From: Gammaproteobacteria bacterium
GTDB lineage: Bacteria; Pseudomonadota; Gammaproteobacteria; UBA4575
Assembly: GCA_965242685.1 (NCBI GenBank)
Contig: OZ251487.1
Span: forward strand, 417,199-481,198
DNA: 64,000 bases
Direction of reading: 5' to 3'
The position numbers and the translations under genes were made by a program. Shown in pieces: positions 17,519 to 36,376 of this stretch (the first letter of the stretch is position 1; every line of letters begins with the position of its first letter). The notes beneath the pieces were generated by a model. It saw only the letters and a list, made by a program, of their open reading frames with translations. It ran no database searches and was not told the DNA's origin.

Positions 17519-20027
17519 CATCATGCGGTGGCATTGCTCCCGTGCAATGCTTTTGCTGATTGCTTTGACAGCATCGGTGGCACCGTTGCCGGGCAAAGTC
17601 TCCGGCCAGTCCCACGATACCCCTGCGGAACTCGACACGGCGAGGGCCACGGCCGTAATTGATCGGCTGGACATTGAGCTGTCCGGTATGAAGAACGTCC
17701 ACGATCTGCTGTTGGGGCGCTTGGACTACAACGGCTTCGGTATCCATCGGCCGTTCGTTCTCGGCACCAACTATGCGGCGGTGCTCGTCAACGGGCGGCG
17801 CATCTCCGATTCAACCTTTGACCTTGAAACGCTGCCGTTGTCGGCGGTCGAACGTATCGAAATTTTCGCTGACGGCGCCGTCGGCCGGCACGGCGGTCAC
17901 GCTATCGGAGGTGCGGTCAACATCATTCTCAAGCGTGACCGAAAAGGTTTTGAAATTCAGGCAAGCGCAGGCCGTCCGGATCGGGCGGGTAGCGATATCG
18001 AGCACGGCGGCGTCTCGTGGGGAGGTGCGCTTGGCGAAGGTTACATGACGATCGGCGTAGACTTTTTTCACAAACAGGAAGTCCGTGATGCAAAACGAAA
18101 GTACAGCCGCTCCTCATGGATGCCGGGAGGGTCGTTTGCCGGTGCTTCCGGCGTTTCGGTAGGCGGTAACACCGTTTTCATTTCCGATAACGGCGACTCG
18201 ATTGCGCGCGCACTTGGCGACTGTCGGGGAAGTGCCTATACCGGTGTGCTTCAGAACCCTCTTGGTATTTCCGGTACGGGTTGCGGGTTTGCCTGGGGCG
18301 AAATCTCCTGGAGTCAGGAACGGCTTGAGCGGGAGAACCTGTTTATCGACTTGGATCATCCACTCGGCAGGGATGCAACCCTCTATGCCGAGGCCCGCAT
18401 CACGCAGGCCGATGCCGCAATCCGTTGGGCCCCTTCGGTAGGTACTTTTTCCTTCACGCCCACCTCGGAACTCAGACAGAAACTGCTGCAAGACCCCGAA
18501 ATTGACACATTGCCCGACATGCTTCGCGTCTCGCATCGGTTTGTTGGCCATGGTAATCGCACCTGGCGTACCGATCTGGAAGAATACGACATTACGGCCG
18601 GCGTGCGGGGCAAACTCATCGGTAACCTCAACTATGACGGCTATCTCAGATACTATCGTCACGATGCCGTGGTAGACGGCGACACCTTTGTCAGCGAACG
18701 TCTGGTTAGAGAAGCCATTGATGAAGGTCGCTATGACCTTGAAAATCCATCCTCGACGGCGGCGCAGCATCGGATGGCCGTACACGATACCCGTCTCACG
18801 CTGACTCGCGACGTAGTGACCGACCACAAAGCGGCGCGGCTGGCCCTGGATGGCACGGCGTTTTCACTCGGAGATAATGACACGAGATGGATGGCGGGCG
18901 TAGAAATTACCGAAGAAGATTGGCGTAACGTCAACGACTATCGGGACGTTCGCGGCCGCCACCACGATGCGAGTGATGTACTTGGTTCCGGTGGGGGTGC
19001 GACCTCCGGCGAGCGCCGGCGGCGTTCGGCGTTTGCGGAAATATCTCTCCCATTGTTGAATGGTGATTGGAATATCGCTCTCTCCGCACGGCATGACGAT
19101 TACGACGATGTCGGCGCGGCGTTCTCCCACAAAGCCGCAAGCCACTACCGGTTAAACGAGGCCCTGACGTTTCGCGGCGCCTGGAGCGAAGGCGCCAGGG
19201 CGCCTGACCTGGCCTTGCTGCATACATCCCCAACGATCAGCTATCCATCCGTGTGCGATACCCGATTATTTGCCGGTCATCTAAACGATTGCGACACGTA
19301 TCAAGTCGAGGGTGCCAGCGGCGGCAACCCGCACCTAAGGCCGGCTAAGTCCGAGAGTGCCAACCTTGGCATCGTGACCGATTTGGGGCCCCTATTCGTG
19401 AGTGTGGACTGGTTCGAGATCAAACTTTCCGAAGTGCCGGCCAGATTGTCCGCGCAATCCATCGTTGATCTTGAAGCGGCGGGGAGACTGCCGTCCGGGG
19501 CGGCGGTCATACGCGCGGGAAACCTCATCACGCGGATTGACAATCCCTGGGTCAATAATGCGAGAACCGATGTATCCGGGCTTGACGTGCACGCCCGAGT
19601 AGACTGGCGGATTGACGGGTTGCTGGACATGGTTTTTGACCTGCGCTGGTCTCGTGTCAACCGCTATGAGCATCGCGTGCTTGGAGAGATACAGCCGGGG
19701 GATCTCCCGCGCGACCGCTTTCATGCCTCGCTGCGTGCGGGGCGGGGTGGTTTTACCGCAAACTGGAGCATCCATTCGGTCTCGGGCTATCGCAACCGGC
19801 TCGGTACCGCGCGCTACCGGCCGTGGCTGGGGCACGACGTCACGTTGCACTGGCGCAATGCGTTTGGTTTTGACGGAATGGAGATTGCTGGTGGCGTGCT
19901 CAATATCGATGATCGAGAACCGTCCACCGATCCGGCAAATCCCGGCAAACTGGGTGCGGCGGCTACGCTTGATTCAATCCGCGGTCGCACGCTATTCCTG
20001 ACCGCCAAAATCCCGTTTGGTTCCTAA
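17508..20027 (+). CDS. TonB-dependent outer membrane receptor
   Basis: 839 aa; signal peptide; plug domain block NGRRISDSTFDLETLPLSAVERIEIF...GGAVNIILK; long beta-barrel region. Confidence 0.8.
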   Translation: MKTDIMRWHCSRAMLLLIALTASVAPLPGKVSGQSHDTPAELDTARATAVIDRLDIELSGMKNVHDLLLGRLDYNGFGIHRPFVLGTNYAAVLVNGRRISDSTFDLETLPLSAVERIEIFADGAVGRHGGHAIGGAVNIILKRDRKGFEIQASAGRPDRAGSDIEHGGVSWGGALGEGYMTIGVDFFHKQEVRDAKRKYSRSSWMPGGSFAGASGVSVGGNTVFISDNGDSIARALGDCRGSAYTGVLQNPLGISGTGCGFAWGEISWSQERLERENLFIDLDHPLGRDATLYAEARITQADAAIRWAPSVGTFSFTPTSELRQKLLQDPEIDTLPDMLRVSHRFVGHGNRTWRTDLEEYDITAGVRGKLIGNLNYDGYLRYYRHDAVVDGDTFVSERLVREAIDEGRYDLENPSSTAAQHRMAVHDTRLTLTRDVVTDHKAARLALDGTAFSLGDNDTRWMAGVEITEEDWRNVNDYRDVRGRHHDASDVLGSGGGATSGERRRRSAFAEISLPLLNGDWNIALSARHDDYDDVGAAFSHKAASHYRLNEALTFRGAWSEGARAPDLALLHTSPTISYPSVCDTRLFAGHLNDCDTYQVEGASGGNPHLRPAKSESANLGIVTDLGPLFVSVDWFEIKLSEVPARLSAQSIVDLEAAGRLPSGAAVIRAGNLITRIDNPWVNNARTDVSGLDVHARVDWRIDGLLDMVFDLRWSRVNRYEHRVLGEIQPGDLPRDRFHASLRAGRGGFTANWSIHSVSGYRNRLGTARYRPWLGHDVTLHWRNAFGFDGMEIAGGVLNIDDREPSTDPANPGKLGAAATLDSIRGRTLFLTAKIPFGS

Positions 20028-20145
20028 AATCGGCAATTCTGTCGCCGGGAGTGTAAATCCACGATTCCGTACGAAGCCAAGAATTTAGGTGGCGGCACGG
20101 CCAGGCCACCCGCGGCGGGTTTACGTCACCGGTTTTCCGACAACC

Positions 20146-21519
20146 TCAATCAAAAAGGCCGAAGTAGTGGGATATGTTGATTTCGAATCGTTTGTTCCAG
20201 CGGTCATTGCCGTTCGCGCCGAAGTCCCCGACACCGTCATAGATGTTGCCGTAACTGTCGTTTTTATCGCCGACGAAGTAGTTGCCGTCGGAGACGCCTA
20301 ATTCAGCGTAAATGTACAATTCTCTCCAGTGGAACAGCGCACCGGCCACCCACATGCTACTGTCGTTGAAATCATCTTCCTCTTTGAGGATGGAACTCCA
20401 TTCAAGGTACGGCGTAATGCTGTGAATCCCGTATTTGCCGCCCGTGTTTATGCCGTTGTATCGCAGCGACAGAGCGGGTATCCACGCCTCGGTCGCCACC
20501 AGCCATGGAAAGTTGAACGCGCCCATGGGGATCAGGTCGCCGGTGCCCCACGGCGTATCGTCGGTGATGTCGTATTTGTAATAGGTAAGCTGTGAAACCA
20601 ACTCCCAATCGTTGAACTTGTTGATGGCGTGCGCGGATAGGGCATAGTGGTCGGCGCCACTGTCGTCCACGTTTTTGCCGTTCAGCTGTCCGTATTGCAG
20701 CGAAGTGCCGTACTGATCGCCGCTTTCTGCCTTATAGATCAGGCGCAGGTTGAGCTGATGCTCTTCCTCGAAGCCGTGTTCTTCGGCGCCATCAAAGGTT
20801 ACGTTACCGTCCGCATCGACTGCTTCCCTCCACGTCACCACGTCATAGCTGTAGCGCGAGCTGTTGGCGCTGGTACCGTCCCATTCCCCTTCGTCTTCAA
20901 GGTAATAGGCGAGATCGATAGTCAGGTTGTCAAAAGTCTTTGTCCATCTGACGCCGAGGTCCATGTCATCCGCAAGCCCGACGTAGTAGTGCTGATCAAA
21001 AAGCCAACTGGCGGAAGCCCCGTAAGCGGTCGGGCCGAAAGGCACGCGCACGATACCCACCTTGGTGGTGCCATATTCCTCTGAATCGTATCCCAGCCAT
21101 GCCGTGTGCATCATGCTGTAGGTATCGTACCAACGGTATTCAACCCTGCCGATGTAGCCGTTGTGGTCAAGGTCGGCGTTCAGACGAAAGATATCCAGGT
21201 CGACGTCTCCCACGTCTTCACCGCGGCGTTCGTTGGTGTCGTAGTCGCCATAGGTGTAACCTACCCTCAGCGCACCGCCGAGCCTGATCGGCAGCGGGGC
21301 TTTCTCGGGTTCTGTCGCTTTCTCTTCCACCGCCGCCTGCTGCATGGCAGCTTGCGCTTCCATCTCTTCAAGCTTTTTCCGGCTCTCCTCCAGCGCACGC
21401 TCCAGTTCCATAATCCGTTGCTTGAGCATCTCGTTATCGTCGGCCGCCCCTACGGACAAGGGCAGGGTAAACACTAGAGAAACGGCGATGATACTCAGCT
21501 TACGTATTAGGTATTTCAT
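20146..21519 (-). CDS. Outer membrane porin-like beta-barrel protein with N-terminal coiled-coil segment
   Basis: 457 aa; signal peptide MKYLIRKLSIIAVSLVFTLPLSVGA; coiled-coil LKQRIMELERALEESRKKLEEMEAQ then alternating aromatic/hydrophilic beta-strand pattern rich in Y/W/G/D. Confidence 0.55.
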   Translation of the reverse strand: MKYLIRKLSIIAVSLVFTLPLSVGAADDNEMLKQRIMELERALEESRKKLEEMEAQAAMQQAAVEEKATEPEKAPLPIRLGGALRVGYTYGDYDTNERRGEDVGDVDLDIFRLNADLDHNGYIGRVEYRWYDTYSMMHTAWLGYDSEEYGTTKVGIVRVPFGPTAYGASASWLFDQHYYVGLADDMDLGVRWTKTFDNLTIDLAYYLEDEGEWDGTSANSSRYSYDVVTWREAVDADGNVTFDGAEEHGFEEEHQLNLRLIYKAESGDQYGTSLQYGQLNGKNVDDSGADHYALSAHAINKFNDWELVSQLTYYKYDITDDTPWGTGDLIPMGAFNFPWLVATEAWIPALSLRYNGINTGGKYGIHSITPYLEWSSILKEEDDFNDSSMWVAGALFHWRELYIYAELGVSDGNYFVGDKNDSYGNIYDGVGDFGANGNDRWNKRFEINISHYFGLFD

Positions 21520-21723
21520 AACTAGGCACTCTTGAAGATAGGGGTTAAGTGATTTTTATAACGATAAGTAGGGCGGTGATTGTTAATTAATACCATAGTA
21601 TACCTTTAATTTAGAATAAAGATAGCAAAAATCTGCCGCCGCTTAAATTTTTTTGCGGGGAAGCATCCATTGTTTTGCTATACTTCCCATTCAAAAGAAA
21701 ATAAAAATTAGAAAACAAAAAAA

Positions 21724-22203
21724 TTGGGGAACGCGATCAGCATGAAACGACGAGCGCGGGGTAAGGGAACGATCATTGCGGAAGGGTTTTCCGTTACGGG
21801 TGACGTGAAGGGAGACGGCCCCGTTCTGGTAGCCGGCAATGTCAAAGGAAACGCCGATATACAAGGTTTGATTGAACTGAGCCAGACCGCAACTTGGGAG
21901 GGCGACGTTCATGCCGATGACGTCATCGTCGGCGGCAGTCTGAAGGGGCACGTCTTTGCCAGAGATGAACTCGCCGTAACGGCAAGTGCCCGTATCTCCG
22001 GAAACGTGAGCAGCCGCAGTATCTCTATCGAACAGGGCGCCACCCTCAACGGTGCCATGCACGTCACCCGCGACGGCACTGTGGACGAGCAGGCGGCACG
22101 CCGAAACGACGATGCGTCCGCCGATACCGCTGAAACGTCCGAAGAGACTTCAGACCTTGGGGACGACGTGACCGACGGCCAGTATTCTCAGAGCGGCCTG
22201 TAA
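21724..22203 (+). CDS. Bactofilin (polymer-forming cytoskeletal protein, DUF583)
   Basis: 159 aa; beta-helical repeats GDVKGDGPVLVAGNVKGN...GDVHADDVIVGGSLKG...ISGNVSS; acidic C-terminal tail. Confidence 0.85.
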   Translation: MGNAISMKRRARGKGTIIAEGFSVTGDVKGDGPVLVAGNVKGNADIQGLIELSQTATWEGDVHADDVIVGGSLKGHVFARDELAVTASARISGNVSSRSISIEQGATLNGAMHVTRDGTVDEQAARRNDDASADTAETSEETSDLGDDVTDGQYSQSGL

Positions 22204-22667
22204 TCCCCCTTGCCGGTCTCGAATTCCACGTTGGAGGTTGTCTTTTTGATGACTACCGTACCGGCCAGCTTGTCATGCCAGCCTTGTTTTCTGTTGTCGA
22301 ATGCCACCCAGAGGAAGCCAAGTCCAAGCACCAGACCTGAAAGAAAATAGGCAAAATACCTGCCGATACATTGTCCCGTAGACGGCTTTTCGCCGGTACG
22401 TGCATCGACGATTCTTGCCGCAATGGCCATCTTCCCGGGCGTGGCCTGTTTGTATACCCAAAACAGGATGACGGCAACGGCCGGCAAGACCCAGGAAACA
22501 AAGAAATCCGCAATCCCCGCAAACACAAACGAACTTGCGGTGTAATAGCCAACGCCGTAAATCGAAATCAGAACGGGCGCAGTGACGACTAGGATCAAAA
22601 GACCGTCAATGATGGCGGCTGCAACCCTCACCCAGAAGCCGGCGTATTCAAGTCCATCGTTGCCCAT
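22188..22667 (-). CDS. RDD-family membrane protein
   Basis: 159 aa; R..D..D pattern (WVRVAAAIIDGLLIL ... WHDKLAGTVVIKK) and three hydrophobic helices. Confidence 0.8.
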   Translation of the reverse strand: MGNDGLEYAGFWVRVAAAIIDGLLILVVTAPVLISIYGVGYYTASSFVFAGIADFFVSWVLPAVAVILFWVYKQATPGKMAIAARIVDARTGEKPSTGQCIGRYFAYFLSGLVLGLGFLWVAFDNRKQGWHDKLAGTVVIKKTTSNVEFETGKGDYRPL

Positions 22668-22985
22668 TGCCCATACCGCTTTCTATCGTCTGTAAATACA
22701 AACACAAAATTATAGCATAGCCCGCACCGCAGTATTTTTTTGTTCTTGCGGATAAGTCGAAAAAATTGAAGTCGGTAAGCAAAATTGACACCGAAAAATT
22801 TTGACGTTTTCGCGTCACGCTTTGCCTGTTTTCTTGATACGCCCGCCTACCTCCCCATCAAACGGCTACACGTAACCTCATCCGTTGCCCGTGCAACATC
22901 CTTTTAAGGTTTGTGCCGGTCCCAAACTCGCGTAACCACTGCCGTGCCAGATCCGGGCAGTAGATCACCCCTCTCATAAGGAATA

Positions 22986-23079
22986 GCCCCTTCATTGGGG
23001 GTGATCTCCAAACACATCAAATATCGCATTGCGCACAACGTCGGGTGTAGTCCCCCTTCATTGGGGGTGATCTCCAAAC
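22986..23079 (+). CRISPR. Minimal CRISPR array: two 28-nt direct repeats (27/28 identical) flanking one 38-nt spacer
   Basis: Repeat 1 at 22986-23013 is gccccttcattgggggtgatctccaaac. Repeat 2 at 23052-23079 is cccccttcattgggggtgatctccaaac. Spacer at 23014-23051 is acatcaaatatcgcattgcgcacaacgtcgggtgtagt. The repeat has a CCCC-loop-GGGG hairpin and an AAAC 3' end like Cas13a direct repeats. The array lies 35 nt beyond the stop of the Cas13-like gene. Confidence 0.6.
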
Positions 23080-23114
23080 CATTGTAAAGCAAATATCCAT
23101 TTTTACACAACAAT

Positions 23115-26100
23115 CTATCTTTTCCTTTGTGAAGGATTGTGCTTGTGTATATGACTCTTCCTCCGGTTTTGGTATTTTCTTTTTTGTGTTCCCTCAGCTT
23201 TTCCTCTGTTCTGATTTTTTCTGCCTGGAGTTTTATCGGGCAATTGAGCCTCGCCACCGAACAGATCGGCTACCATCTCGATGTACTTTTCACCGTGCAG
23301 GTCTTCTTTGACTTTATTGCCCAAGTGAGTGGCTTGCCTGGTCTTAACTGTTGCTCCTGTAAGTCGGTGTCCTTTCATCTCCCATTCCAGGACAAGTCCT
23401 TCGCGTGCCAGCATTTCCTTGATTGACCGGGTCACCGCGTTTTTCAGTTTGCGGTCGTAGGCCATCAGCTTGCGGGTGTCGTTGACGGCCTCGGTCAGGT
23501 TCAGGTCGGGTTTGTTGCTTTGCAACATGTTGAAGTGCATCAGCTTGTTGCGAATGGAGCGGGGATAGTCTTCACATCTATCATCCAGAAAATGTTTACC
23601 AAATACCTGTTTTAATTGTTCGAAAATCTTTTTTGCATCTCCTTTTTGCGATTTTCTAAGTGTATTGATCGCCTCAACAATTTGGCCATCCTTGAGATTC
23701 TTACGTCCATTTGAATTGAACACGTCATCCGGCCTTTTCCCTGAAAGGCTTATCAGCGCGAGCATTACAAAATACAGGTCGCGTTCCCACAGGCCGGCAT
23801 AGTCGGTCAGCCGTCCCAATACCCGCATTAGCAGGCGATGCAGACGCACGTGGTTGTTGAGACGGACGTGTGCCGCAAAATGCCGATGCTTTTCTATAGT
23901 TTTAAGTGTTTGGCGATAGTCTTTTTCTTTTTCTTTGGAAAATCTCTTTTTAACCCATTCATCATGCAATTTTTCCCGTTTTTTCTGTTGTTCGGCAATT
24001 TTATTTTCCGATTCGTCCGATTCGTCCAGCTTAAGCTTATTCACGTTTTCGGCTGTAATCGGGTGTTTCCGGAAAATTGGCATCAATGGTTTGAGGTCGC
24101 CGAACCGCCAGAGCTCCCGCAGGCCGCGCCAGGGTACCAGCTGTTTTTTTGTATTTGTATCCGATTCGGGGCAGGCACGGCGAAAAAGCTCCTCGGACTT
24201 GAACAGGTCTTTGAGTTCGCTGTCATAAATATTGATTGTCTCGTTCCCCTCAAACTTGGCGTCGTGCATATCGAGATAAAGACTGAATAGTTGTGCGAGG
24301 GGCTTGACCACCTCATCTTTCTCATCTTTGATAGATGATTTCCGTACAAGGATCGACCATTTGGAAAGCTGGTGCCGTAATTGGGCAATCGCATCGACGG
24401 GCACCAGATGAATGAGGAAGTAAAGAACGGCCTGCCAGTCTATTGCTTTGGTTTCATCTGGTGGTACTTTCTTCAGTGCTTTATCCAGAGAGCCGCACTC
24501 GTTTTTAAGCTCGTCCGTTACCCAGTTTAATTGGTTCTCTTTCAGGTAAGCCTTGAAGGCCTGTGCCACCACGTCGCACCGCAGGTCATCGAGGTATTTG
24601 GCCTGCTGGCGGGCCTTGTCAGCGTCGCTATCGTAGCCACGCTGCACGCGCAGTTCGGACGCTGTGCGAGCGGCAAGTTGATCGATGAAATCGGCAATCC
24701 CTTGGCCTTCTTCCAGGTGGACCTGGTCGGTAGCCTTGGCGACGGCAAGTTCGTCCTTATTTAATTTCTTTGCATCCTCAGTAGCGCGCTTCACGGCACG
24801 TTTAATCCATTGATTCAGGGCTTGTTTCGTTTGTTTTTCCAGCCATGCGGGGAAAGCGCGTTCGTATATTGCCTTTGCAGTGACGTACCGACACAGTTTG
24901 TCGGGCTGATCTTCAAGTTTGTCCCGCTTACCGGGCGGCGGCAGATGCAGGAGGTAAGGTTTCTTGCTCCAAGCGTTTTCCGCACGGGCGAGGACGCGAT
25001 TGAAGCGGGGCAACGGTGACAGCGATGTTTCTGCATTGACGATGGCCTTGATCAGCGCGTCGATCTTGCTTTGGTCGTAATACTTCTCAACCTGTGCCGC
25101 TTTAAGGTCTTTAATCAATTGTTCGTTGCGCTTGGTAAAATCGTGTTTCAGGAGTTTGTGTGTGGCGTCAATGGTGGCAGGGAAGTTGTTAAGGTTGTTG
25201 GTTAATGCCTCGATAAAGCGGTCACGTCCCTTGAAGTGAAACGCCGCGTGACGCAGTTCAGCCCACCCGTTCAGTGCCAGTTTCAGCACTTGATTTTTAA
25301 AGTCTTCATCACCCTTGAAGTAGTCATTCCGTTTGCCGAACAGGAGCGGCAGCTTCGGCAGCTTTTTTAGATAGGCCGATTCACAAAAATTCCCATCTGT
25401 TACTCCATCATTTTTGATATTGAGCAATATGTCCTCTTTAATGCGATTGTTCGGGTCTGCCCAGTCCTTCAACGTCCGTGCACCGAGCGCAATCGTATAA
25501 CGCCACACGCGCACGAAGGCCTCGTTGCGTTTGATTTCGGCTTGCCCTTCACTGGTTCGATAGTGGCTGTTTGTGATTGCCTCGGATTCGGGCCAGTGGT
25601 CGATGGCATGGCCGTTTTTGCCGGCTTCGTAATGGATGATTCTTCCCAGACGCACCAGGCCGTTGAGATCACGATTGCGCACCTTGTTTTTGACCAGTTG
25701 GAACAGTTTGTTCATGTCTTGCGGTAGAATGCGCGCCACGTTTTTCTTGTTATGTTTCTTAAGGATGCGGGTATAGGTATCCTTAATAGCGGCATGAAGC
25801 GCAAATAGTCTAGGATAGAGATCACGGGCTTCGGTAACGGCGAGCACTTCTCCGTCATCGCCTTTGAACAGCTCCCCATATTGCCCGTACAGAATCGGGG
25901 CAACATCGCGTACCGAGAACTTGCCTTTCTTACCTTCAGCCGCTCGATAAATCTGGCCTGCTACGTCACCGGCCTCTTTATATGCTTTTTCATCCTGGTC
26001 TGACCAGTCATATTCACCACCCGAAAATCCCGTCGGCAACGCCATTACGTTTTTGGTAATGCTTTCCGCCCTGGCCGCTATCAGCCCCTTACTCTTATTG

Positions 26101-26606
26101 GGTTGGCTAGGCTCTTTCCGATATTCTTTTTCATACAGGTGTTCGTATATCTTTCCCGCGATTTCTTCGGCCTCTTTGTCACCGATTTCGGCAGGTTTCT
26201 TGTCACCGACGAAGCGTCCATACCAACGGCCTTTTGGAGCTGGAGAATTCTTACAGTTTTCTTTCGGGTAAGGATGAATCTTTGACCACCACAACTTCCT
26301 GAGTTTTTCAAGCTCGTCGAAATTGTCCGCATTCTTTACCTTTAACAGACCGTTCTTTATCAAATAGCACCAGACGGCGTTACCGAGTGTCTCGCGCAGC
26401 TTGCGCTGTTCGGCGGAAGGTTTGCCGTTCCCACGGGGCTTGGCTGCGATCTTGTCAATGATGGATATCCATTGCTTAATGACGAGTTCAGGGTGTTCTT
26501 TTGCAAATTCTGCAACGTCCTTTGCATCCTTGTGGCCGGGATTTGGGCGGATTTTCCGTTTTCCTGTTGGGGTCTCGCTTCGACCGTATGGCTTGATAAT
26601 CAACAT
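23115..26606 (-). CDS. cas13a: Cas13a-like type VI CRISPR RNA-guided RNase (two HEPN R-x4-H motifs)
   Basis: 1163 aa. HEPN1 is ELRHAAFHF (R452/H457), encoded about 25236-25253. HEPN2 is SIRNKLMHF (R1019/H1024), encoded about 23535-23552. Size and motif spacing are close to LbuCas13a (1159 aa; R472/H477, R1048/H1053). The protein is Lys-rich and the gene AT-rich. A CRISPR-like mini-array is adjacent. Confidence 0.72.
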   Translation of the reverse strand: MLIIKPYGRSETPTGKRKIRPNPGHKDAKDVAEFAKEHPELVIKQWISIIDKIAAKPRGNGKPSAEQRKLRETLGNAVWCYLIKNGLLKVKNADNFDELEKLRKLWWSKIHPYPKENCKNSPAPKGRWYGRFVGDKKPAEIGDKEAEEIAGKIYEHLYEKEYRKEPSQPNKSKGLIAARAESITKNVMALPTGFSGGEYDWSDQDEKAYKEAGDVAGQIYRAAEGKKGKFSVRDVAPILYGQYGELFKGDDGEVLAVTEARDLYPRLFALHAAIKDTYTRILKKHNKKNVARILPQDMNKLFQLVKNKVRNRDLNGLVRLGRIIHYEAGKNGHAIDHWPESEAITNSHYRTSEGQAEIKRNEAFVRVWRYTIALGARTLKDWADPNNRIKEDILLNIKNDGVTDGNFCESAYLKKLPKLPLLFGKRNDYFKGDEDFKNQVLKLALNGWAELRHAAFHFKGRDRFIEALTNNLNNFPATIDATHKLLKHDFTKRNEQLIKDLKAAQVEKYYDQSKIDALIKAIVNAETSLSPLPRFNRVLARAENAWSKKPYLLHLPPPGKRDKLEDQPDKLCRYVTAKAIYERAFPAWLEKQTKQALNQWIKRAVKRATEDAKKLNKDELAVAKATDQVHLEEGQGIADFIDQLAARTASELRVQRGYDSDADKARQQAKYLDDLRCDVVAQAFKAYLKENQLNWVTDELKNECGSLDKALKKVPPDETKAIDWQAVLYFLIHLVPVDAIAQLRHQLSKWSILVRKSSIKDEKDEVVKPLAQLFSLYLDMHDAKFEGNETINIYDSELKDLFKSEELFRRACPESDTNTKKQLVPWRGLRELWRFGDLKPLMPIFRKHPITAENVNKLKLDESDESENKIAEQQKKREKLHDEWVKKRFSKEKEKDYRQTLKTIEKHRHFAAHVRLNNHVRLHRLLMRVLGRLTDYAGLWERDLYFVMLALISLSGKRPDDVFNSNGRKNLKDGQIVEAINTLRKSQKGDAKKIFEQLKQVFGKHFLDDRCEDYPRSIRNKLMHFNMLQSNKPDLNLTEAVNDTRKLMAYDRKLKNAVTRSIKEMLAREGLVLEWEMKGHRLTGATVKTRQATHLGNKVKEDLHGEKYIEMVADLFGGEAQLPDKTPGRKNQNRGKAEGTQKRKYQNRRKSHIHKHNPSQRKR

Positions 26607-26740
26607 ATGGTAATTATATACTAACTACGCTACAATATAAAAGCGTAATTTGCCGAGTAGACGGGTAGTGGAGAGATACCTGGACGGCAGTCATTTGAAA
26701 CTGACAGGTAAAAAATAATTATACGGGGGCACGTAACCCA

Positions 26741-27304
26741 ATGCGACAAGGTTTGTATCGAAGCATCGTGGTTGATCCGCCTTGGGATCAAGGCAAAACG
26801 GGGATTCGTTCCGCTCGTCCCAATCAGGGCGTTGATCTGGATTACCCTACGCTGACGCAAAACGAGATTTTAGAGATTGTTCGGCTGGATGAATGGGCTG
26901 CCGAGAATGCGTTTCTTTGGCTGTGGGCGACAAACAGCAGATCGCGCTCAAGCAAGAAGCCTATCCTTCAGCAGGCGTTTGAATTGATGGATGCTTGGGG
27001 GTTTCGATACTACACCATGCTTACATGGGATAAAAAAACCGGGCCTTGCCCATTCGGCCCTTATCAGATAACGACCGAACATTGTTTATTTGGCTATCGG
27101 GGGCAATGCAGGTTTGACAAACAATCTCTTGGCAAGATGAAAACCTGCTTTCATGCCCCCGTCACTCGGCACAGTGAAAAACCCGCGCTGTTTTACGATA
27201 ACGTCCGTAAATACTTTCCCTCCCCCAAGATTGACGTTTTTTCAAGAAGAACACATAGCGGCTTTGAAGGTTGGGGTTGGGAAGCCGAACAGGACGTTGC
27301 ATAG
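26741..27304 (+). CDS. MT-A70-family adenine N6-methyltransferase (DPPW motif)
   Basis: 187 aa; catalytic motif VVDPPWDQG near N-terminus; family size typical of small bacterial MT-A70 proteins; divergent from cas13a-like gene with 134-nt shared intergenic region. Confidence 0.8.
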   Translation: MRQGLYRSIVVDPPWDQGKTGIRSARPNQGVDLDYPTLTQNEILEIVRLDEWAAENAFLWLWATNSRSRSSKKPILQQAFELMDAWGFRYYTMLTWDKKTGPCPFGPYQITTEHCLFGYRGQCRFDKQSLGKMKTCFHAPVTRHSEKPALFYDNVRKYFPSPKIDVFSRRTHSGFEGWGWEAEQDVA

Positions 27305-27522
27305 TGCCGACAAAAGCCAATCAGTTATCTGGAGCAGACTGGCTGAAAAACTCGTTCAGTATATGGAGAGGTATACCTAAAGACCCAATCGGTAGAAAGC
27401 GTCATCCCGTCAAGTGCCTGAACCGCCGTTAGCCCCAAGCCACGAGGCATTGAATTGGCATATTGAAAATATCATGGGACGTTAGCGCTCGTTCAGCCCG
27501 AAACCAGCAGAAAAACCGGCGT

Positions 27523-28752
27523 TCAACCGAAAAACCAATACCCGATCAGGATGGCCGCGATGACGCCGACCAGATCGGCGAACAGTCCGCAGCCGATGGC
27601 GTGACGCACGCGGCGTATCCCCACGCTGCCAAAGTAGATGGCCAACACGTAAAACGTAGTTTCGGTGCTGCCTTGTACGATGGCCGCGACGTTGGCGGCG
27701 AACGAGTCTACGCCGTGGGTGCTCATGGTCTCCAGCATCATCGCGCGTGCCCCGCTACCGGAAAACGGGCGCATCAAGGCGGTGGGCAAGGCGGCGACAA
27801 ACTCGGTATCGAGACCGAACGCCGCGACTACCTTTGCAATGACCGTAAGCACCTGATCGAGTACCAGACTGGCGCGCAATACGCCTATCGCCACCAACAT
27901 GGCGACCAGATAGGGGATGATCTTCACGGCGACTTCAAAGCCCTGTTTGGCGCCTTCGATAAAGGCCTCGTAGACGTTGACCTTGCGCGCGAAGCCCAGC
28001 GTCAGGAAGGCCACGATCACCAGCAGCAATAGCAGACTGCCCAGCAGACTGGAGCGCTCGGTCAGGGCGTCCGCCTCGCCGGTCAGCAGGAAAACCAGCA
28101 ACAGCCCCATCAACGACATGAGCCCCAGCAGATAGACGAGCATTGTCTTGTTGAACAGCTTCAGCCCCTGAAGGTAGGCCGTCAGCAGCAGACCGGCAAG
28201 CGTCGAGGCGGAGGTGGCCAACAGGATCGGTATAAACACCGCCGCCGGGTCACTAGAGCCTTGCTGCGCGCGAAACAGAAAGATGGTGACCGGCAACAGG
28301 GTTACCGACGATGTATTCAGCACCAGAAACAGGATTTGTGCGTTGCTGGCGGTATCCTTTTGCGGATTGAGGTCTTGCAGATCCTGCATCGCCTTCAGCC
28401 CCAACGGAGTGGCGGCGTTGTCCAGGCCAAGCATGTTGGCCGCCATGTTCATGGTGACCGAACCGATGGCCGGATGATTGGCGGGTACTTCCGGCATCAG
28501 TTGTTTGAACAACGGGCGGAATATCTTGGTAAGTAACTCGATAAAACCGGCGCGTTCGGCGATGGCAAAAAATCCCAGCCACAGACACAGCACGCCGATC
28601 AGTCCAAGTGCGATTTCAACGCTCAGCGCCGCCATGTCGAACGTCGCCTGAACGACCTGTGCAAACAGCGCGTTGTTGTCGTGCACCAGGGCGTGATACA
28701 CGCAGCTGAGGAATGCGGCAATAAAAAAGCCGAACCACAAGTAATTAAGCAT
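27523..28752 (-). CDS. Nucleoside-recognition (Gate) domain inner-membrane protein, SpmA/SpmB-like fusion
   Basis: 409 aa polytopic membrane protein; two Gate-like halves (LSVEIALGLIGVLCLWLGFFAIAERAG..., ...AIYFGSVGIRRVRHAIGCGLFADLVGVIAAILIGYWFF). Confidence 0.65.
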   Translation of the reverse strand: MLNYLWFGFFIAAFLSCVYHALVHDNNALFAQVVQATFDMAALSVEIALGLIGVLCLWLGFFAIAERAGFIELLTKIFRPLFKQLMPEVPANHPAIGSVTMNMAANMLGLDNAATPLGLKAMQDLQDLNPQKDTASNAQILFLVLNTSSVTLLPVTIFLFRAQQGSSDPAAVFIPILLATSASTLAGLLLTAYLQGLKLFNKTMLVYLLGLMSLMGLLLVFLLTGEADALTERSSLLGSLLLLLVIVAFLTLGFARKVNVYEAFIEGAKQGFEVAVKIIPYLVAMLVAIGVLRASLVLDQVLTVIAKVVAAFGLDTEFVAALPTALMRPFSGSGARAMMLETMSTHGVDSFAANVAAIVQGSTETTFYVLAIYFGSVGIRRVRHAIGCGLFADLVGVIAAILIGYWFFG

Positions 28753-28877
28753 GACGGTTACGCTTCAATCTGACTGATGAAATATCGGCAATTTCAAGGG
28801 GTAAGATGGTATAGTATACGTATAGTGCATTAAAAAGGTGAGGCTTCCTTAACAATCGTGAAATAGAGGGTTTAGCA

Positions 28878-29894
28878 ATGAAAGTAGAGGGTTTGGCAAT
28901 GAGATTCCGCACTGCCGTGACGGTTGCGGCTTTAGTATTGTTTGGTGCAGCGAATGACTTGCACGCCGACGATGTCCAAATTGGCCTTCAGTCCATATAC
29001 GTACCGTGGATCGTACAATTGGAAAATATCAAGGAACACGGTTTTGCCGGCAAGAATGTCGACTTCGTGAAAATCACCTCACCCGAAGAAGTGCTGGACG
29101 GTCTCGACTCGGGTGCCGTGGATATCGTGCTTGGGGGTAACGCGCTGGTCGCAGAGGGCTATAGCCGGGATATTGATCTGCAAGTTGTCTACATCTACGA
29201 CAATATCAACGATGCGGAAGCGCTGGTAGTGGATGATTCGATTACCGCACCCCAGGATCTAGTCGGCAAAACCATCGCAGTGCCCTTCAGTTCCACCACG
29301 CACTACCATCTGTTGTTTGCCTTGGAGCAGTTTAGAATCCCTACGGACGCTCTCACGATACTTAACCTGACACCACCGGAGATCGTCTCGGCTTGGGAAC
29401 GTGGCGATATCAACGGCGCGTTCATCTGGGACCCGACACTTGGGCGCATGAAGGAAACCGGGCACGTATTGTTGACTTCCAGAGATCTGACCAACTGGGG
29501 CAGGCCTACTTTCGACTCGATGATCGCATCGCGCACGTTTGCTGCGGAAAATTCCGATTTCGTTTGCCGGTGGGTCAAGATGTCGGCGGCGGCCGATGCC
29601 GACTATCGCATGAATCCGGCTACCTACGATCCGGGGACTGACAAGGCGATGGCAATTGCAAAGGGCAGCTCCGGTGATCCGGATCGCGTAGGCGAAGTGC
29701 TTGCACTGTACGAATATCCGACGTTGGAAGAGCAGGTATCCGCCACTTGGCTTGACGGTGGCGTACAGAGCGCATTACAGGCAACCGCCGAGTTCCTGAT
29801 GGCACAAGGCATACTTGACCGCCTGCCCGCCAGCTTTGCTGATGCCGCAACGCCGAAGTTTGCCCGAATGGTGCTTGACGGCGACTGCCGCTAA
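28878..29894 (+). CDS. ABC-transporter periplasmic substrate-binding protein, NMT1/TauA/SsuA (sulfonate/taurine) family, orphan
   Basis: 338 aa; signal peptide; TauA-like blocks (GGNALVAEGY, VGKTIAVPFSSTTHYHL); no permease/ATPase genes adjacent. Confidence 0.7.
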   Translation: MKVEGLAMRFRTAVTVAALVLFGAANDLHADDVQIGLQSIYVPWIVQLENIKEHGFAGKNVDFVKITSPEEVLDGLDSGAVDIVLGGNALVAEGYSRDIDLQVVYIYDNINDAEALVVDDSITAPQDLVGKTIAVPFSSTTHYHLLFALEQFRIPTDALTILNLTPPEIVSAWERGDINGAFIWDPTLGRMKETGHVLLTSRDLTNWGRPTFDSMIASRTFAAENSDFVCRWVKMSAAADADYRMNPATYDPGTDKAMAIAKGSSGDPDRVGEVLALYEYPTLEEQVSATWLDGGVQSALQATAEFLMAQGILDRLPASFADAATPKFARMVLDGDCR

Positions 29895-30052
29895 CGCCAC
29901 TTCAGCTAGACCCGCATCAAGCCACAAAGATTCACTCAATAAAAAACGCTGGCATTAGTGGCCAGCGTCGGGCCGGGGCACGAAAGCCACCGGTGGGGTG
30001 AGTAATATATTATATTAAACTGGCTGTAAGTCAAAGGAAACTTCACCTGGCA

Positions 30053-32290
30053 ATGGATCTAACCGACCGCGACAAGCAAGAGATTATCCGTCATCTTGAG
30101 GCGGACCAACCGTTGCCCGACCGGTATCGGTTTTTACTGTTTGACGACAAGCGGCAGGCGGAATTGGTATGGAACGGCAAGACCAACGAAGTATGTAACG
30201 TAGTATTGCCGTTTCAAACCATAGAACACGTCGACGAGCCGCGTGTCGAGAGTCCCGATGATCTCCCTTTAATGGACGACCTATTCGCCGTAGACGCACG
30301 CGGCCGACAGCTAAAGGGCTGGGAAAACAAGCTGATATGGGGCGACAACAGGCTGGTACTGTCCAGTCTCAAGGGCGGCGCCTTACGCGAGGAAATTGAA
30401 AAGCAGGGCGGCATCAAGCTCATCTACATCGACCCGCCGTTTGATGTCGGGGCGGACTTTTCCATGGACATTGAAATCGGCGGCGGAAACTTCACCAAGG
30501 CGCCGAGCGTATTGGAGGAGATCGTCTATCGGGATACCTGGGGGCAAGGTGCGGACTCGTTCATCGCCATGTTGTACGAGCGGTTGATCTTGATGCGCGA
30601 CCTACTGGCCGAAGACGGGAGTATTTACGTCCACTGCGATTATAGGATGAACGGCTATATCCGCCTGGTGTTGGATGAAGTGTTTGGGAAGGGTGCGGGT
30701 GCTGGCTATGTAAATGAGATTGTTTGGCAGGGTGCGATTGGGGAGACATCATCTAAAAACAAAAAATTTATCAAGTCCCACGAAACCATTTATTTATACC
30801 GCAAAAGCGGAGTGCTGTGGAATGAGATATTTCAAACATATAGCGAGGCCAGCCAAAGTTTATATCGTTACTCCGATGACAAAGGGCGTTACCGAATCGG
30901 ACCGACAAATAAACCCGGTACGGGGGGCTATTTCTACGATTTAGGTTACGGGGAAATATGCCCGCAAAGGGGATATAGGATGCCGATTGAGACCGCTCTC
31001 GCTTGGATTGAAAGTGGTGAGTTGATTATTGAAAAAGGGAAAGTACCCGGACGTAAGTTGTATATGGGTGAGGGGGTCAGATGTCGTGACGTTTGGGTGG
31101 ATATAAGAGCGACGCAAGGCAATGAATATTTGCGTTACCCCACCCAAAAACCCGAAGCCCTGTTGGAACGGATCATCAAGGCATCCAGCAACGAGGGTGA
31201 TGTGGTGGCGGACTTCTTTTGCGGTTCGGGCACGTTGGCGGCGGTGGCGGAGAAGCTGGGGCGCAAATGGATCTGCGGAGACTTGGGCAAGTTTGCCGTA
31301 CACACGACCCGCAAGCGGATGATCGGCGTCCAGCGCCGGTTGAAGGCCGAGGGCAAGGACTATCGCGCCTTTGAAGTCCTGAATCTCGGCAAATATGAAC
31401 GACAGCACTACATCGGCGTCAATGCCGGCTTGCATGAAGCGGGGCGCGCGACCCAACAGACGGCGAAAGAACGTGCCTTTGTCGATCTAATTTTGCGCGC
31501 GTACAAGGCCGAGCGGGTAGACAATTTCTCATGCTTTCACGGTAAGAAACAGGGCAGGCTGGTGACCGTGGGGCCGGTTAACCTCCCAATATCCCGTCAG
31601 TTTGTCGAGGAGATCGTTCAAGAATGTAAGAAAAAACACATCACAAAGGTAGACCTGTTGGGTTTCGAGTTTGAGATGGGCCTGTTTCCGCAGCGATTGA
31701 ACGAGGCAAAAGAACAGGGCATCGACCTTGTACCCAAATACATCCCCCGCGATGTATTCGACAAACGCGCCGTGGAGAGAGACCAGGTAAGGTTCCACGA
31801 CGTGGCGTTTATCGAGATCAAAACCCACGTGAAGGACGGAACGGTAGCGGTGGAACTCACCGATTTCTCCGTCTACTACCATCAGGGTTCGGTAGAAAAT
31901 GCCGAACAAACCCTGAGAAACAGAGGCAGTAAAGTGGTGGTGAAAGCGGGGCGGGTGGTGAAGGTATCCAAGGATCAACACGGCGCGATCACCCGTGAGG
32001 TGCTGACGAAAAAGTGGACGGATTGGGTAGACTACTGGTCGGTGGACTTCGACTACGAAAGCAAACGGGAAATCATCCGCGAACGGAACCAGGCGGGCGA
32101 ATGGGTAGAACGATGGACGGGCGACTACGTGTTTGAAAACGAGTGGCAAAGCTTCCGCACCCGCCAAGATCGGTCGCTGGAATGGACCACGCCCCCGCAC
32201 AAATGCCCGCCGGGAAACTACAAGATCGCCGTCAAGGTGGTTGACGTATTCGGTAACGACACCATGACGGTGGCGGAGGTAAAGGTGTGA
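30053..32290 (+). CDS. mod: Type III restriction-modification system methyltransferase subunit (Mod), adenine-specific
   Basis: 745 aa; catalytic motif IV YIDPPFDVGADF followed by motif I FFCGSGTLAAVAEKLG (beta-class order typical of Type III Mod); variable target-recognition middle region. Confidence 0.85.
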   Translation: MDLTDRDKQEIIRHLEADQPLPDRYRFLLFDDKRQAELVWNGKTNEVCNVVLPFQTIEHVDEPRVESPDDLPLMDDLFAVDARGRQLKGWENKLIWGDNRLVLSSLKGGALREEIEKQGGIKLIYIDPPFDVGADFSMDIEIGGGNFTKAPSVLEEIVYRDTWGQGADSFIAMLYERLILMRDLLAEDGSIYVHCDYRMNGYIRLVLDEVFGKGAGAGYVNEIVWQGAIGETSSKNKKFIKSHETIYLYRKSGVLWNEIFQTYSEASQSLYRYSDDKGRYRIGPTNKPGTGGYFYDLGYGEICPQRGYRMPIETALAWIESGELIIEKGKVPGRKLYMGEGVRCRDVWVDIRATQGNEYLRYPTQKPEALLERIIKASSNEGDVVADFFCGSGTLAAVAEKLGRKWICGDLGKFAVHTTRKRMIGVQRRLKAEGKDYRAFEVLNLGKYERQHYIGVNAGLHEAGRATQQTAKERAFVDLILRAYKAERVDNFSCFHGKKQGRLVTVGPVNLPISRQFVEEIVQECKKKHITKVDLLGFEFEMGLFPQRLNEAKEQGIDLVPKYIPRDVFDKRAVERDQVRFHDVAFIEIKTHVKDGTVAVELTDFSVYYHQGSVENAEQTLRNRGSKVVVKAGRVVKVSKDQHGAITREVLTKKWTDWVDYWSVDFDYESKREIIRERNQAGEWVERWTGDYVFENEWQSFRTRQDRSLEWTTPPHKCPPGNYKIAVKVVDVFGNDTMTVAEVKV

Positions 32291-33706: not shown

Positions 33707-36376
33707 ATGGCGCTCCACCCCAAATTTCCTGATTCTCCCCACGCCGTTCTCGATCCTGAAGTTCGCTGGTTTCCCGCCGATGAGACGGTGCGCGAGCAGA
33801 CGATGGACAAGTTGATGCCGCCACTGGTGGCGGAACTGCGGCGCAAGGTAAAGGAATTTCGAGACGCCGGCTATGCGGGCGCAAGCAATACCGGCAGGAG
33901 CTTGTTGAATTGGTGGTTCAAGGAATCGCACCCACAGCCACAATCGGACGGCGGCACGACGGAGTTTCGGTATTACTTCGCCCAGCGCGAGGCTATGGAG
34001 ACCATCATTTATCTGTATGAGGTGGCCGGGGCGAAGGATAAGTTTGACTTGATGCGCTTCGATTCCATCGGGCTGGTATCCACCGGCATGTTTGACGAGA
34101 CCTGGCGGCGTTACGTGATCAAGATGGCGACCGGCACCGGCAAGACTAAGATCATGAGTTTGGTGTTGGCGTGGAGCTTCTTCCACAAACTGTACGAAGA
34201 AGGCTCAAGCCTGTCGCGCAATTTTCTGATGATTGCTCCGAACATCATCGTGTTGGACCGCCTCTACAAAGATTTTCAGGGTTTGCGGATCTTCTATGAT
34301 GATCCGGTGATGCCCGACAACGGCTATGGAGGACAAAACTGGCGGGATGACTTTCAGCTAACGTTGCATTTGCAGGACGAGGTACAGGTGACGCACCCCG
34401 TGGGAAACATCTTTTTGACTAATGTCCATCGGGTTTATTGCGGCGAGGATATCCCGCCTTCGCCGGGAGACGAGAACACGATGGATTATTTTCTCGGCAC
34501 TCGTCCCGTCGGTGCGACCACCGATTCTAAAATAGACTTGGGAATGATCGTGCGCGACATTGACGAGTTGATGATCCTAAACGATGAGGCGCACCATATC
34601 CACGACGCGAAGCTCGCCTGGTTCAAGTCGGTTGAAGACATCCATAACCGGCTGCTGCAAAAGGGCGGCGAGTTGAGCTTGCAGGTGGACGTGACCGCAA
34701 CGCCGAAACACAATAACGGCGCGATCTTTGTGCAAACGATAGCGGATTACCCGTTGGTGGAGGCGATCTCTCAGAACGTGGTCAAACATCCGGTGTTGCC
34801 GGATGCGCCAAGTCAGGCAAGGTTGGAGGAAAGACAGAGCACAAAATTCACCGAGAAATACGCCGATTATCTTGATTTGGGCGTGACTGAGTGGCGCAAG
34901 GCTTACGGTGAACATGAGAAGCTCGGCAAGAAAGCGATCCTGTTCGTGATGACGGATGACACGAAAAATTGTGATGAAGTTGCCGGGTATTTGGAGAGTC
35001 ACTATCCCGATTTGCAAGACGCGGTATTGACCATTCATACCAAGAACAACGGCGAGATTTCCGAAGTGTCTCACGGCAAGAAGAAAGAAGAGCTTGAGGA
35101 ACTTCGCAAACAGGCCAACGAGATTGATTCACTGAAGAATCCTTACAAGGCCATCGTGTCGGTGCTGATGCTCAAGGAGGGCTGGGACGTGCGCAACGTC
35201 ACTACTATCGTCGGCCTGCGGGCGTATTCGGCCAAGAGCAATATCCTACCGGAGCAGACGCTTGGCAGGGGGCTGCGCAAGATGTATCGGAATGACACTG
35301 AGGAGAAAGTGAGTGTGGTCGGTACCGATGCCTTCATGGAGTTTGTGGAAGGCATACAGGCGGAAGGGGTGGAACTGGAGCGCGAGGCTATGGGAGAAGG
35401 CACTAAGCCCAAGGCGCCGCTGGTGATAGAGGTTGATAGTGAAAAGGATCTGGATGCGCTGGATATTGAAATTCCGGTACTGACGCCTCGTTTATATCGG
35501 GAGTACAAAAACCTGGCCGATCTGAACCTTGAAACAATGGAGTTTAAAATGCTGGAATATCGGCAGTTTAACGAAGAACAGCAGCGCGAGATCGTCTTCA
35601 GGGACGTGACTACGGGCGAGGTGACGCATATCACCGTGCTGGACAGCGCGGGGGTGGGCGATTACCGCAGCGTCATCGGCTATTTTGCGCAGACCATGAT
35701 GAGGGAGCTACGACTGGTAAGTGGCTATGATGCTTTATACGGCAAGGTCAAGGCGTTTATTCGGGATCACCTGTTCGGCAAAACGGTTGCGCTGGAATCT
35801 GCCAATACGTTGAGAAATTTGTCGGAGATGGTAGCCACCAAGACGGTGCTTGAGACTTTCAAAAAGGCGATCAATCACCTGATGGTACGGGAAAGGGAGG
35901 GTGCGGAGATTCATGATTCCATCAAGCTACGCCAGATGCGCCCGTTCGTGATAAAAGAGCGACAGTATTTATCTCCCCGCAAGAGTGTATTTAACCGGAT
36001 TGTCGGCGACAGTCGGCTTGAACTGGAGTTTGCCAAGTTTTTGGAGCGATGCAATGACGTATCCGCGTATGCCAAAAATTATCTGGCGGTTCACTTCAAG
36101 CTGGATTACGTAAATGCGAGTGGCGAACTTACCAATTATTACCCTGATTTTGTCGTCAAGCTGACCGATGGCCGCATGGTCGTCGTCGAGACCAAAGGGC
36201 GCGAAGGACTGGACGTACCGCGAAAAGTGGCACGCTTGAGGCGGTGGTGTGAAGACGTCAACGCGGTGCAGGACGTGACATGGAGTTTCGTCTACGTGGA
36301 TGAGGAAGGGTTTCACAAGTATTCACCCAAGTCTTTCGCGGGACTTTTGGCCGGTTTTCGGGAGTATAAAGGGTGA
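33707..36376 (+). CDS. res: Type III restriction endonuclease subunit (Res), SF2 helicase plus PD-(D/E)xK nuclease
   Basis: 889 aa; helicase motif I MATGTGKTKIM, motif II LNDEAHHI (DEAH), motif VI region; C-terminal nuclease motif YPDFVVKLTDGRMVVVETKGRE. Confidence 0.85.
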   Translation: MALHPKFPDSPHAVLDPEVRWFPADETVREQTMDKLMPPLVAELRRKVKEFRDAGYAGASNTGRSLLNWWFKESHPQPQSDGGTTEFRYYFAQREAMETIIYLYEVAGAKDKFDLMRFDSIGLVSTGMFDETWRRYVIKMATGTGKTKIMSLVLAWSFFHKLYEEGSSLSRNFLMIAPNIIVLDRLYKDFQGLRIFYDDPVMPDNGYGGQNWRDDFQLTLHLQDEVQVTHPVGNIFLTNVHRVYCGEDIPPSPGDENTMDYFLGTRPVGATTDSKIDLGMIVRDIDELMILNDEAHHIHDAKLAWFKSVEDIHNRLLQKGGELSLQVDVTATPKHNNGAIFVQTIADYPLVEAISQNVVKHPVLPDAPSQARLEERQSTKFTEKYADYLDLGVTEWRKAYGEHEKLGKKAILFVMTDDTKNCDEVAGYLESHYPDLQDAVLTIHTKNNGEISEVSHGKKKEELEELRKQANEIDSLKNPYKAIVSVLMLKEGWDVRNVTTIVGLRAYSAKSNILPEQTLGRGLRKMYRNDTEEKVSVVGTDAFMEFVEGIQAEGVELEREAMGEGTKPKAPLVIEVDSEKDLDALDIEIPVLTPRLYREYKNLADLNLETMEFKMLEYRQFNEEQQREIVFRDVTTGEVTHITVLDSAGVGDYRSVIGYFAQTMMRELRLVSGYDALYGKVKAFIRDHLFGKTVALESANTLRNLSEMVATKTVLETFKKAINHLMVREREGAEIHDSIKLRQMRPFVIKERQYLSPRKSVFNRIVGDSRLELEFAKFLERCNDVSAYAKNYLAVHFKLDYVNASGELTNYYPDFVVKLTDGRMVVVETKGREGLDVPRKVARLRRWCEDVNAVQDVTWSFVYVDEEGFHKYSPKSFAGLLAGFREYKG

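Follow-up and report, generated by a model that had tools for sequence, protein, structure and literature searches.

In the type VI-A CRISPR system of Rhodobacter capsulatus SB1003, a functional two-spacer array lies directly downstream of cas13a and has a separate promoter, and its spacer 6 triggers growth arrest; this bacterium also carries a second, larger array and a cas1 gene (PMC11089165). Its effector, RcCas13a (PDB 7OS0), cuts the precursor of its CRISPR RNA (pre-crRNA) 4-5 nt 5' of the repeat stem to give a crRNA of ~58 nt, and the roles of the HEPN residues as well as pre-crRNA processing by R1085, N1089 and H1113 were shown for it by Kick et al. (PMC8776769). RcCas13a reads an A-U closing pair, an AC bulge and the terminal C on its crRNA, and the crRNAs of Lbu, Lsh and Lse Cas13a follow a plan in which a 5' handle carries a short stem-loop, a 2-nt bulge, an A-U closing pair and an 8-nt tag beside the spacer (PMC8776769, section 7). 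Here, we analysed a stretch of 64,000 nt (the window) on contig OZ251487.1 of a gammaproteobacterial assembly (GCA_965242685.1), in which an earlier note had pointed out a Cas13a-style array of two repeats. Our results indicate that the locus is very probably a very small, ordinary type VI-A array made of a leader, an intact 36-nt repeat, a 30-nt spacer and a 3'-degenerate terminal repeat, which reads on the minus strand, co-directional with an intact cas13a and 35 nt downstream of it; this judgement includes the mechanism proposed below by homology. Thus, the two-repeat array and its Cas13a effector stood up to analysis, while the strand and the lengths of repeat and spacer, along with the arguments given for them, had to be revised.

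Compared with the R. capsulatus system, the HEPN and processing residues of the effector are conserved, and the repeats are homologous and have the same polarity and architecture (...AUCACC-stem-loop-stem-GACUnnACC). The window differs in having one spacer and a repeat with a 5-bp stem (CCCCC/GGGGG) and a 6-nt loop, and in an effector of 1163 aa as against 1304 aa in RcCas13a, which has an extra C-terminal domain. Moreover, neither a second array nor a cas1 gene, both present in R. capsulatus, was found in the window. The window repeat also shares its general crRNA plan with the Leptotrichia/Listeria Cas13a repeats (Lbu, Lsh and Lse). The latter end in ...ACUAAAAC, whereas those of the clade to which the window belongs end in ...GACUACACC.

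The Cas13a effector and its repeats

The product of the gene upstream of the array matches the equivalog model NF038188 (cas13A_C2c2) over its full length (profile positions 1-1192) with 813 bits against a cut-off of 150 (E 4e-244). Among solved structures, R. capsulatus Cas13a (7os0) matches best (E 2e-103), with alignments that cover only query residues 13-947 and 1017-1128; Lbu/Lba-type structures are similar in the C-terminal half or third only (query 650-1112 or 823-1110; E 1e-15 to 1e-22). All PDB matches have Cas13a sequence, including 8ewg/8h4u, which carries the depositors' label Cas9. The two HEPN motifs, RHAAFH and RNKLMH (R1019/H1024), align with R464/H469 and R1052/H1057 of RcCas13a, respectively. 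In addition, R1052, N1056 and H1080 align without gaps with the processing residues R1085, N1089 and H1113 of RcCas13a, and as judged from this alignment a separate pre-crRNA processing site is present in the effector. The C-terminal ~47 aa (23118-23260), past the profile-matched residues 1-1116, form a strongly basic, low-complexity tail (…GRKNQNRGKAEGTQKRKYQNRRKSHIHKHNPSQRKR) whose coding DNA is AT-rich and immediately precedes the array leader. Judged from the DNA upstream of their leaders, the genes of two related loci, L002 and L005, seem to share the ...RKR-stop ending.

Downstream of this gene, an exact 27-nt direct repeat, CCCCTTCATTGGGGGTGATCTCCAAAC, occurs in two copies (22987-23013 and 23053-23079 in plus-strand coordinates) with a start-to-start distance of 66 nt. 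With one base added to each copy (g at 22986, c at 23052), these are the two 28-nt units, identical at 27 of 28 positions and 38 nt apart, that had been described before, and the CCCC/GGGG hairpin described with them folds as stated; in the first copy, read on the minus strand, its stem comprises five pairs (CCCCC/GGGGG). The window contains no further copy on either strand with up to three mismatches allowed, and none of 100 shuffles gave any match, none being expected by chance. The 27-mer core had no exact match in the collections metagenome_contigs and viral_contigs, where no longer array of the same species was found either, and an Rfam scan of 22000-24000 (E<=10) returned chance-level matches only and no CRISPR-DR family. 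Short hairpin-forming repeats are common in intergenic DNA and only two copies are seen here, so that an element like the repetitive extragenic palindromic (REP) sequences, or a hairpin duplicated by chance, might be considered. Copies scattered over unrelated sites, which the earlier note took as the sign of such an element, were however absent from the 64 kb and from both collections, and the sequence, period, position and leader of the locus match the arrays of more than 20 cas13a relatives. An origin outside CRISPR therefore has practically no probability.

These relatives came from a scan of one genome per species, which gave 31 loci (L001-L031) with a Cas13a identity of 36-58% over the best tblastn segment. 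About 22 of the 31 have an array immediately behind cas13a and on its strand, in which repeats are 36 nt long, the period is 66 nt and spacers are 30 nt; four Rhodovulum/Rhodomicrobium-type loci have the same repeat in an array that is upstream and inverted. The window thus shares with its clade near-identical 36-nt repeats, period, position, strand, leader motif and a 3'-degenerate terminal repeat. The consensus of the relatives' repeats is GTTGGAGATCACCCCCAAATGAAGGGGGACTGCACC, which copy 1 of the window matches on the minus strand over all 36 nt, although its 5' flank contains an additional T and its loop is shorter by one nt. Most relatives have 4-30 repeats as against two in the window, and their flanking genes are unrelated to those found here. 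The locus has, in minimal form, what defines an array of type VI-A, namely two repeats and one spacer beside cas13a, and with a degenerate second repeat it would probably be missed by standard array finders, which supports the earlier remark that an array of this size escapes them.

On the minus strand, the first repeat consists of a 12-nt 5' flank, a 5-bp stem, a 6-nt loop and an 8-nt 3' flank, or tag, ACUACACC, and its predicted fold has an A12-U31 closing pair and an A29-C30 bulge. It therefore presents the 5'-handle architecture of Cas13a (stem-loop, 2-nt 3'-side bulge, A-U closing pair and tag) in the order repeat, then spacer. The terminal repeat has GGGGCTATTCCTT where the first has GGGGGACTACACC, which costs it the fifth pair of the stem as well as the AC bulge and the tag. 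Without bulge and tag, it would be unable to head a further crRNA and would only mark the 3' end of the spacer.

The earlier note had read the locus on the plus strand, with a 28-nt repeat ending in AAAC, a 38-nt spacer, transcription convergent with cas13a and a possible further spacer at 23080-23114. The near-identity of the units and the hairpin exist on either strand, the plus-strand unit does end in AAAC, and Leptotrichia-type Cas13a repeats end in AAAC as well. Comparison with the family nevertheless leaves this reading almost no room. The family repeat is 36 nt long and family spacers are 30 nt: the 28-mer is the part common to a complete and a 3'-degenerate repeat, taken on the wrong strand, and the 38 nt between the units are the 8-nt 3' flank of the repeat plus a true spacer of 30 nt. 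AAAC is merely the complement of the 5' GUUUGG of the repeat, and the 9 nt by which copy 1 exceeds the direct repeat (GACTACACC) fit the family 3' end on the minus strand only. Beside the spacer, the true 3' tag reads GACUACACC, which matches GACUGAACC in the R. capsulatus pre-crRNA that served in experiments (PMC8776769, supplement).

A covariance model (R1) built from the repeats of 19 relatives only, and whose E-values are rough since the model is home-made, matched the first repeat on the minus strand (23078-23044) with 44.7 bits (E 5e-9), a score like those of the relatives' functional repeats. The terminal repeat, which does not show the handle architecture, reached 13.9 bits (E 0.2), and the model had no plus-strand match at the array locus. 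In an alignment of 21 repeats, which includes the first repeat of the window (A1), the stem is paired in 100% of cells, three pairs show compensatory changes, and none of 500 shuffles was as good. Three G-U wobbles in the relatives' stems are pairs on the cas13a strand only and would turn into C-A mismatches on the other. The invariant positions of the family are A12, A29, C30, T31 and C36. They make up the A-U closing pair, the AC bulge of 2 nt and the final base ahead of the spacer; since RcCas13a reads these on its crRNA, they fix the orientation. Correspondingly, the published R. capsulatus pre-crRNA consists of the homologous repeat GCCUCACAUCACCGCCAAGACGACGGCGGACUGAACC followed by the spacer, with the polarity of the window's minus strand (PMC8776769, supplement). 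In eight relatives (L001, L002, L003, L010, L012, L020, L026 and L030), the repeat farthest from cas13a has decayed at its 3' side as in the window, and such repeats typically retain their 5' two-thirds. On these comparative grounds, the orientation is fixed by five independent results, namely the covariance model, the stem pairing, the invariant features, the published polarity and the decay pattern. The plus-strand reading would have given wrong guide and target predictions; the corrected guide is the 30-nt CGACGUUGUGCGCAAUGCGAUAUUUGAUGU behind a handle of ~29 nt. The main value of this outcome lies in the correction and the annotation, none of which would surprise a CRISPR specialist. The features are collected in Table 1.

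Table 1. Features of the cas13a locus, in window positions.
Feature	Position	Strand	Basis or description
cas13a, 1163 aa, apparently intact	23115..26606	-	NCBIfam NF038188
Leader	23080..23114	-	35 nt, from the cas13a stop codon (TAG, 23117-23115) to the first repeat
Repeat 1, full 36 nt, GTTTGGAGATCACCCCCAATGAAGGGGGACTACACC	23079->23044	-	Covariance model, fold, family alignment
Sole spacer, 30 nt, CGACGTTGTGCGCAATGCGATATTTGATGT (crRNA sense)	23043->23014	-	66-nt period (36 + 30) as in relatives
Terminal repeat, GTTTGGAGATCACCCCCAATGAAGGGGCTATTCCTT	23013->22978	-	First 27 nt as in repeat 1; last 9 nt degenerate
Inverted partial copy, AGATCACCCCTCT	22962..22974	+	Exact 10-nt inverted match
Weak intrinsic-terminator-like hairpin with T-rich tail	22792..22817	-	Consensus scan

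Leader and proposed guide maturation

The 35 nt that the plus-strand reading offered as a further spacer proved to be the leader between cas13a and the first repeat, conserved in relatives. When 12 leaders were aligned in register with the first repeat, a common layout appeared: the stop-codon context GGAAAAGATAr, a cTTGCgt box, 17-18 nt, and a TAnAnn box ending 1-3 nt before the repeat. The TTG of the former box and the A of the latter are invariant at a fixed distance from the repeat in all 12 loci. In the window, the corresponding elements are TTGTGT (23110-23105) and, 18 nt further, TACAAT (23086-23081). The motif emerged by comparative alignment only, and its form leads us to infer that the leader acts as a promoter, in agreement with the promoter that the small array of R. 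capsulatus has of its own. If so, the transcription start would fall within the first repeat, near the Cas13a processing site. A leader of this layout directly after the cas13a stop codon is common to loci in metagenome-assembled genomes (MAGs) of Binatia, Nitrospirales and Alphaproteobacteria (e.g. L002:9564-9623 and L007:9897-9956).

By homology to R. capsulatus Cas13a, we propose that transcription from the promoter-like leader, or read-through from cas13a, would produce a short minus-strand pre-crRNA. Cas13a would bind the hairpin of the first repeat through its 5-bp stem, AC bulge, A-U closing pair and tag and, using the conserved R/N/H site, would cut 4-5 nt 5' of the stem, at about repeat position 7/8 (window 23073/23072). 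The product would be a crRNA of ~59 nt, composed of a 29-nt 5' handle and the 30-nt spacer, close to the ~58-nt crRNA of R. capsulatus. This single guide would arm Cas13a against one RNA target, whose binding would switch on the HEPN collateral RNase, with growth arrest to follow. The terminator-like hairpin lies ~160 nt downstream of the array, before an RDD-family gene (22188-22667), and possibly marks the end of the cas13a/array transcription unit; the consensus scan that called it found two sites where 1.2 are expected by chance, which makes it weak evidence.

Spacer, inverted segment and condition of the array

The predicted target RNA would carry the plus-strand sequence of the spacer (ACAUCAAAUAUCGCAUUGCGCACAACGUCG). 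Within the window, the spacer has no second copy with up to three mismatches, and its best other ungapped match is 19/30; none of the 31 related loci contains a match of at least 20/30. The exact 30-mer was found in neither viral_contigs nor metagenome_contigs, three patterns with N at every third base, which allow for synonymous drift, found nothing in viral_contigs, and blastn against phages and plasmids gave chance-level matches only (E>=0.6). The longest word shared with the surrounding 10 kb (20000-30000) is 9 nt, which is about chance level and gives no sign of a self-regulatory target.

This bears on the idea that a single crRNA-like guide directs Cas13a to a transcript of the host or the cassette by partial complementarity. 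According to Shmakov et al. 2023 (PMC10120712), the cas-regulating mini-arrays of types I and V-A typically have two repeats, one of them degenerate, and the window resembles them in its two repeat-like units, one degenerate, around one spacer beside cas genes; its single fixed spacer and the lack of adaptation genes among the open reading frames (ORFs) scanned would also suit such a role. According to the same survey, mini-arrays are extra to a main array, conserved in close relatives, and have spacers partly complementary to promoters of cas or cargo genes, none of which was found in the window. On the contrary, the element sits at the position of the main array behind the same leader as the relatives' long arrays, the spacers of the window and of the one-spacer relatives L003 and L013 are unrelated to one another, and the longest word that the window spacer shares with the surrounding 10 kb is at chance level. 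In the text searched, that survey does not contain the phrase 'type VI'. A regulatory mini-array is therefore quite improbable here.

Downstream of the terminal repeat, AGATCACCCC (22962-22971) equals the reverse complement of the repeat segment GGGGTGATCT at all 10 nt, and ~12/13 positions match over 22962-22974. The inverted partial copy noticed before is thus real as a sequence match, while nothing supports its suggested role as a regulatory element: it is unique to the window and has no counterpart in 22 related arrays, where the longest inverted match is 9 nt. Matches as long arose in 30 of 5000 shuffled flanks and in 58 of 5000 random 300-nt pieces of the window (p ~0.006-0.012), so chance is an unlikely, though not an overwhelmingly unlikely, source. 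In the minus-strand RNA, pairing is possible between AGAGGGGUGAUCU (22974-22962) and the terminal-repeat segment GAGAUCACCCC, and in the predicted fold, whose z of -1.2 to -1.75 is not unusual, a long stem replaces the hairpin of the terminal repeat and leaves that of the first repeat in place. As an alternative origin, the 10-mer may be a scrambled 3' half of the terminal repeat, to which half of the repeat it also aligns with three indels, without statistical support. A third, decayed repeat in the trailer (ATGAGAGGGGTGATCTAC against ATGAAGGGGGACTAC, the best local alignment) was tried and rejected, as 110 of 500 shuffles were as good. We regard the inverted segment as an accident of this locus or a rearrangement scar; that it serves as a 3'-end hairpin is possible but finds no support.

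Small arrays recur in the clade. Those of L003 (9882-9993, with a second repeat degenerate as in the window) and L013 (9885-9993) have one spacer, and those of L004, L018 and L021 have three, while the largest, in L001, has 30 repeats. L007 (9957-9992) has kept a solo repeat with an intact leader, L029 (4333-5854) carries ~20 progressively degenerate repeats upstream of cas13a on the opposite strand, and the trailers of L002, L004 and L006 contain relic repeats. With R. capsulatus as a further example, the window array is not very unusual, and the sizes from 0 to ~30 repeats offer a natural series for studying array decay without adjacent adaptation genes: cas1 and cas2 were not found among the ORFs tested in six relatives having arrays of 8-30 repeats. 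As no cas1-like gene was found in the window either, the array is probably static or shrinking, and its likeliest origin is the collapse of a longer array by repeat-repeat recombination.

Such a collapse could have left a dead relic that is neither transcribed nor loaded, with Cas13a heading for loss or for a crRNA-independent role. The single spacer without a match anywhere searched, the missing cas1-like gene among the window ORFs scanned, the degenerate terminal repeat predicted to be locked in an alternative hairpin, and the presence of every stage of decay among the relatives fit this view. However, Cas13a has its full length and retains every catalytic and processing residue, the first repeat scores like the relatives' functional repeats, the leader motif is kept, and the two-spacer array at the equivalent position in R. 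capsulatus is functional. We consider a dead relic unlikely, yet far from negligible.

Several points weigh against a working array of the ordinary type. A generic sigma-70 scan calls no promoter in 22600-23500; it passes over the leader motif because the -35 hexamer there matches at only 3/6 positions. The spacer has no detectable target in any search made. Degeneracy of the terminal repeat may keep Cas13a from trimming the crRNA at its 3' end, this repeat might not be cut at all, and the long hairpin predicted around it could hinder processing or serve another purpose. Finally, the scans covered the 64-kb window only, and other arrays or cas1/cas2 elsewhere in the genome are possible.

The ordinary small array remains the reading we prefer. 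A compact cassette of cas13a, leader and array with near-identical 36-nt repeats occurs across MAGs of very different phyla, its hosts being uncultured Binatia, Nitrospirales, Alpha- and Gammaproteobacteria, Dehalococcoidia, Entotheonella and Poriferihabitaceae. Of the lineages carrying such a Cas13a, several are sponge-associated, which suggests that the cassette is often transferred horizontally within a single habitat. It is conceivable, though improbable, that the cassette moves between phyla without adaptation genes and has here become a fixed single-guide device, in which a hard-wired crRNA would sense one RNA, such as a stress-induced transcript of the host or an RNA from a plasmid or resident prophage, and would trigger dormancy, while 22962-22974 would draw the terminal repeat, itself without use, into a hairpin by which the crRNA 3' end is defined or protected.

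Neighbourhood of the locus

Pfam and other profile scans covered ten Cas1-sized ORFs together with ORFs near the locus and elsewhere in the window, two ORFs of 367-377 aa being left out. No Cas1 domain was found in the window ORFs profile-scanned, among which Cas2-sized ORFs were not included, and the ten Cas1-sized ORFs are housekeeping or methylase genes. An adaptation module of cas1 and cas2, which is optional and non-defining in type VI-A, was thus not found among the scanned ORFs of the window. A PADLOC scan of all 56 window ORFs gave a list filled by methyltransferase models and was uninformative for cas1 and cas2. The ORFs near the locus encode a TonB-dependent receptor, an RDD-family protein, an MT-A70 methyltransferase, a Gate-domain (nucleoside recognition) protein and a taurine-binding protein, and two have no match.

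The block at 22500-27500, which comprises the array, cas13a and the divergent MT-A70 gene (26741-27304, plus strand), has a guanine-cytosine (GC) fraction of ~0.48 as against 0.55-0.60 around it. None of the flanking genes has a counterpart beside cas13a in the 31 related loci. The low GC and the unshared neighbours make the block look like an acquired cassette and, as far as composition and synteny can tell, suggest that it is one. For want of synteny with the relatives' flanks, the MT-A70 gene was rejected as a conserved partner of cas13a.

The genes at 30053-32290 (N6_N4 DNA methylase, 745 aa) and 33707-36376 (ResIII-domain protein, 889 aa), which are 3.5 kb away from cas13a, resemble a Type III restriction-modification system. 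A further N6_N4 methylase gene lies at 10032-10973, and this may be a small defence neighbourhood. The tandem repeat (AAACCC)x7.8 at 60966-61012 was rejected as a telomere-like or regulatory repeat, as it lies in the coding region of a TonB gene (60729-61496, TonB_C domain), where it encodes a Lys-Pro repeat region. In addition, a 21-nt tandem repeat, TGAAATAGAGGGTTTAGCAA, present in 2.2 copies at 28859-28902, overlaps the start of the gene for the taurine-binding protein (28878-29894) and may be an operator or regulatory site.

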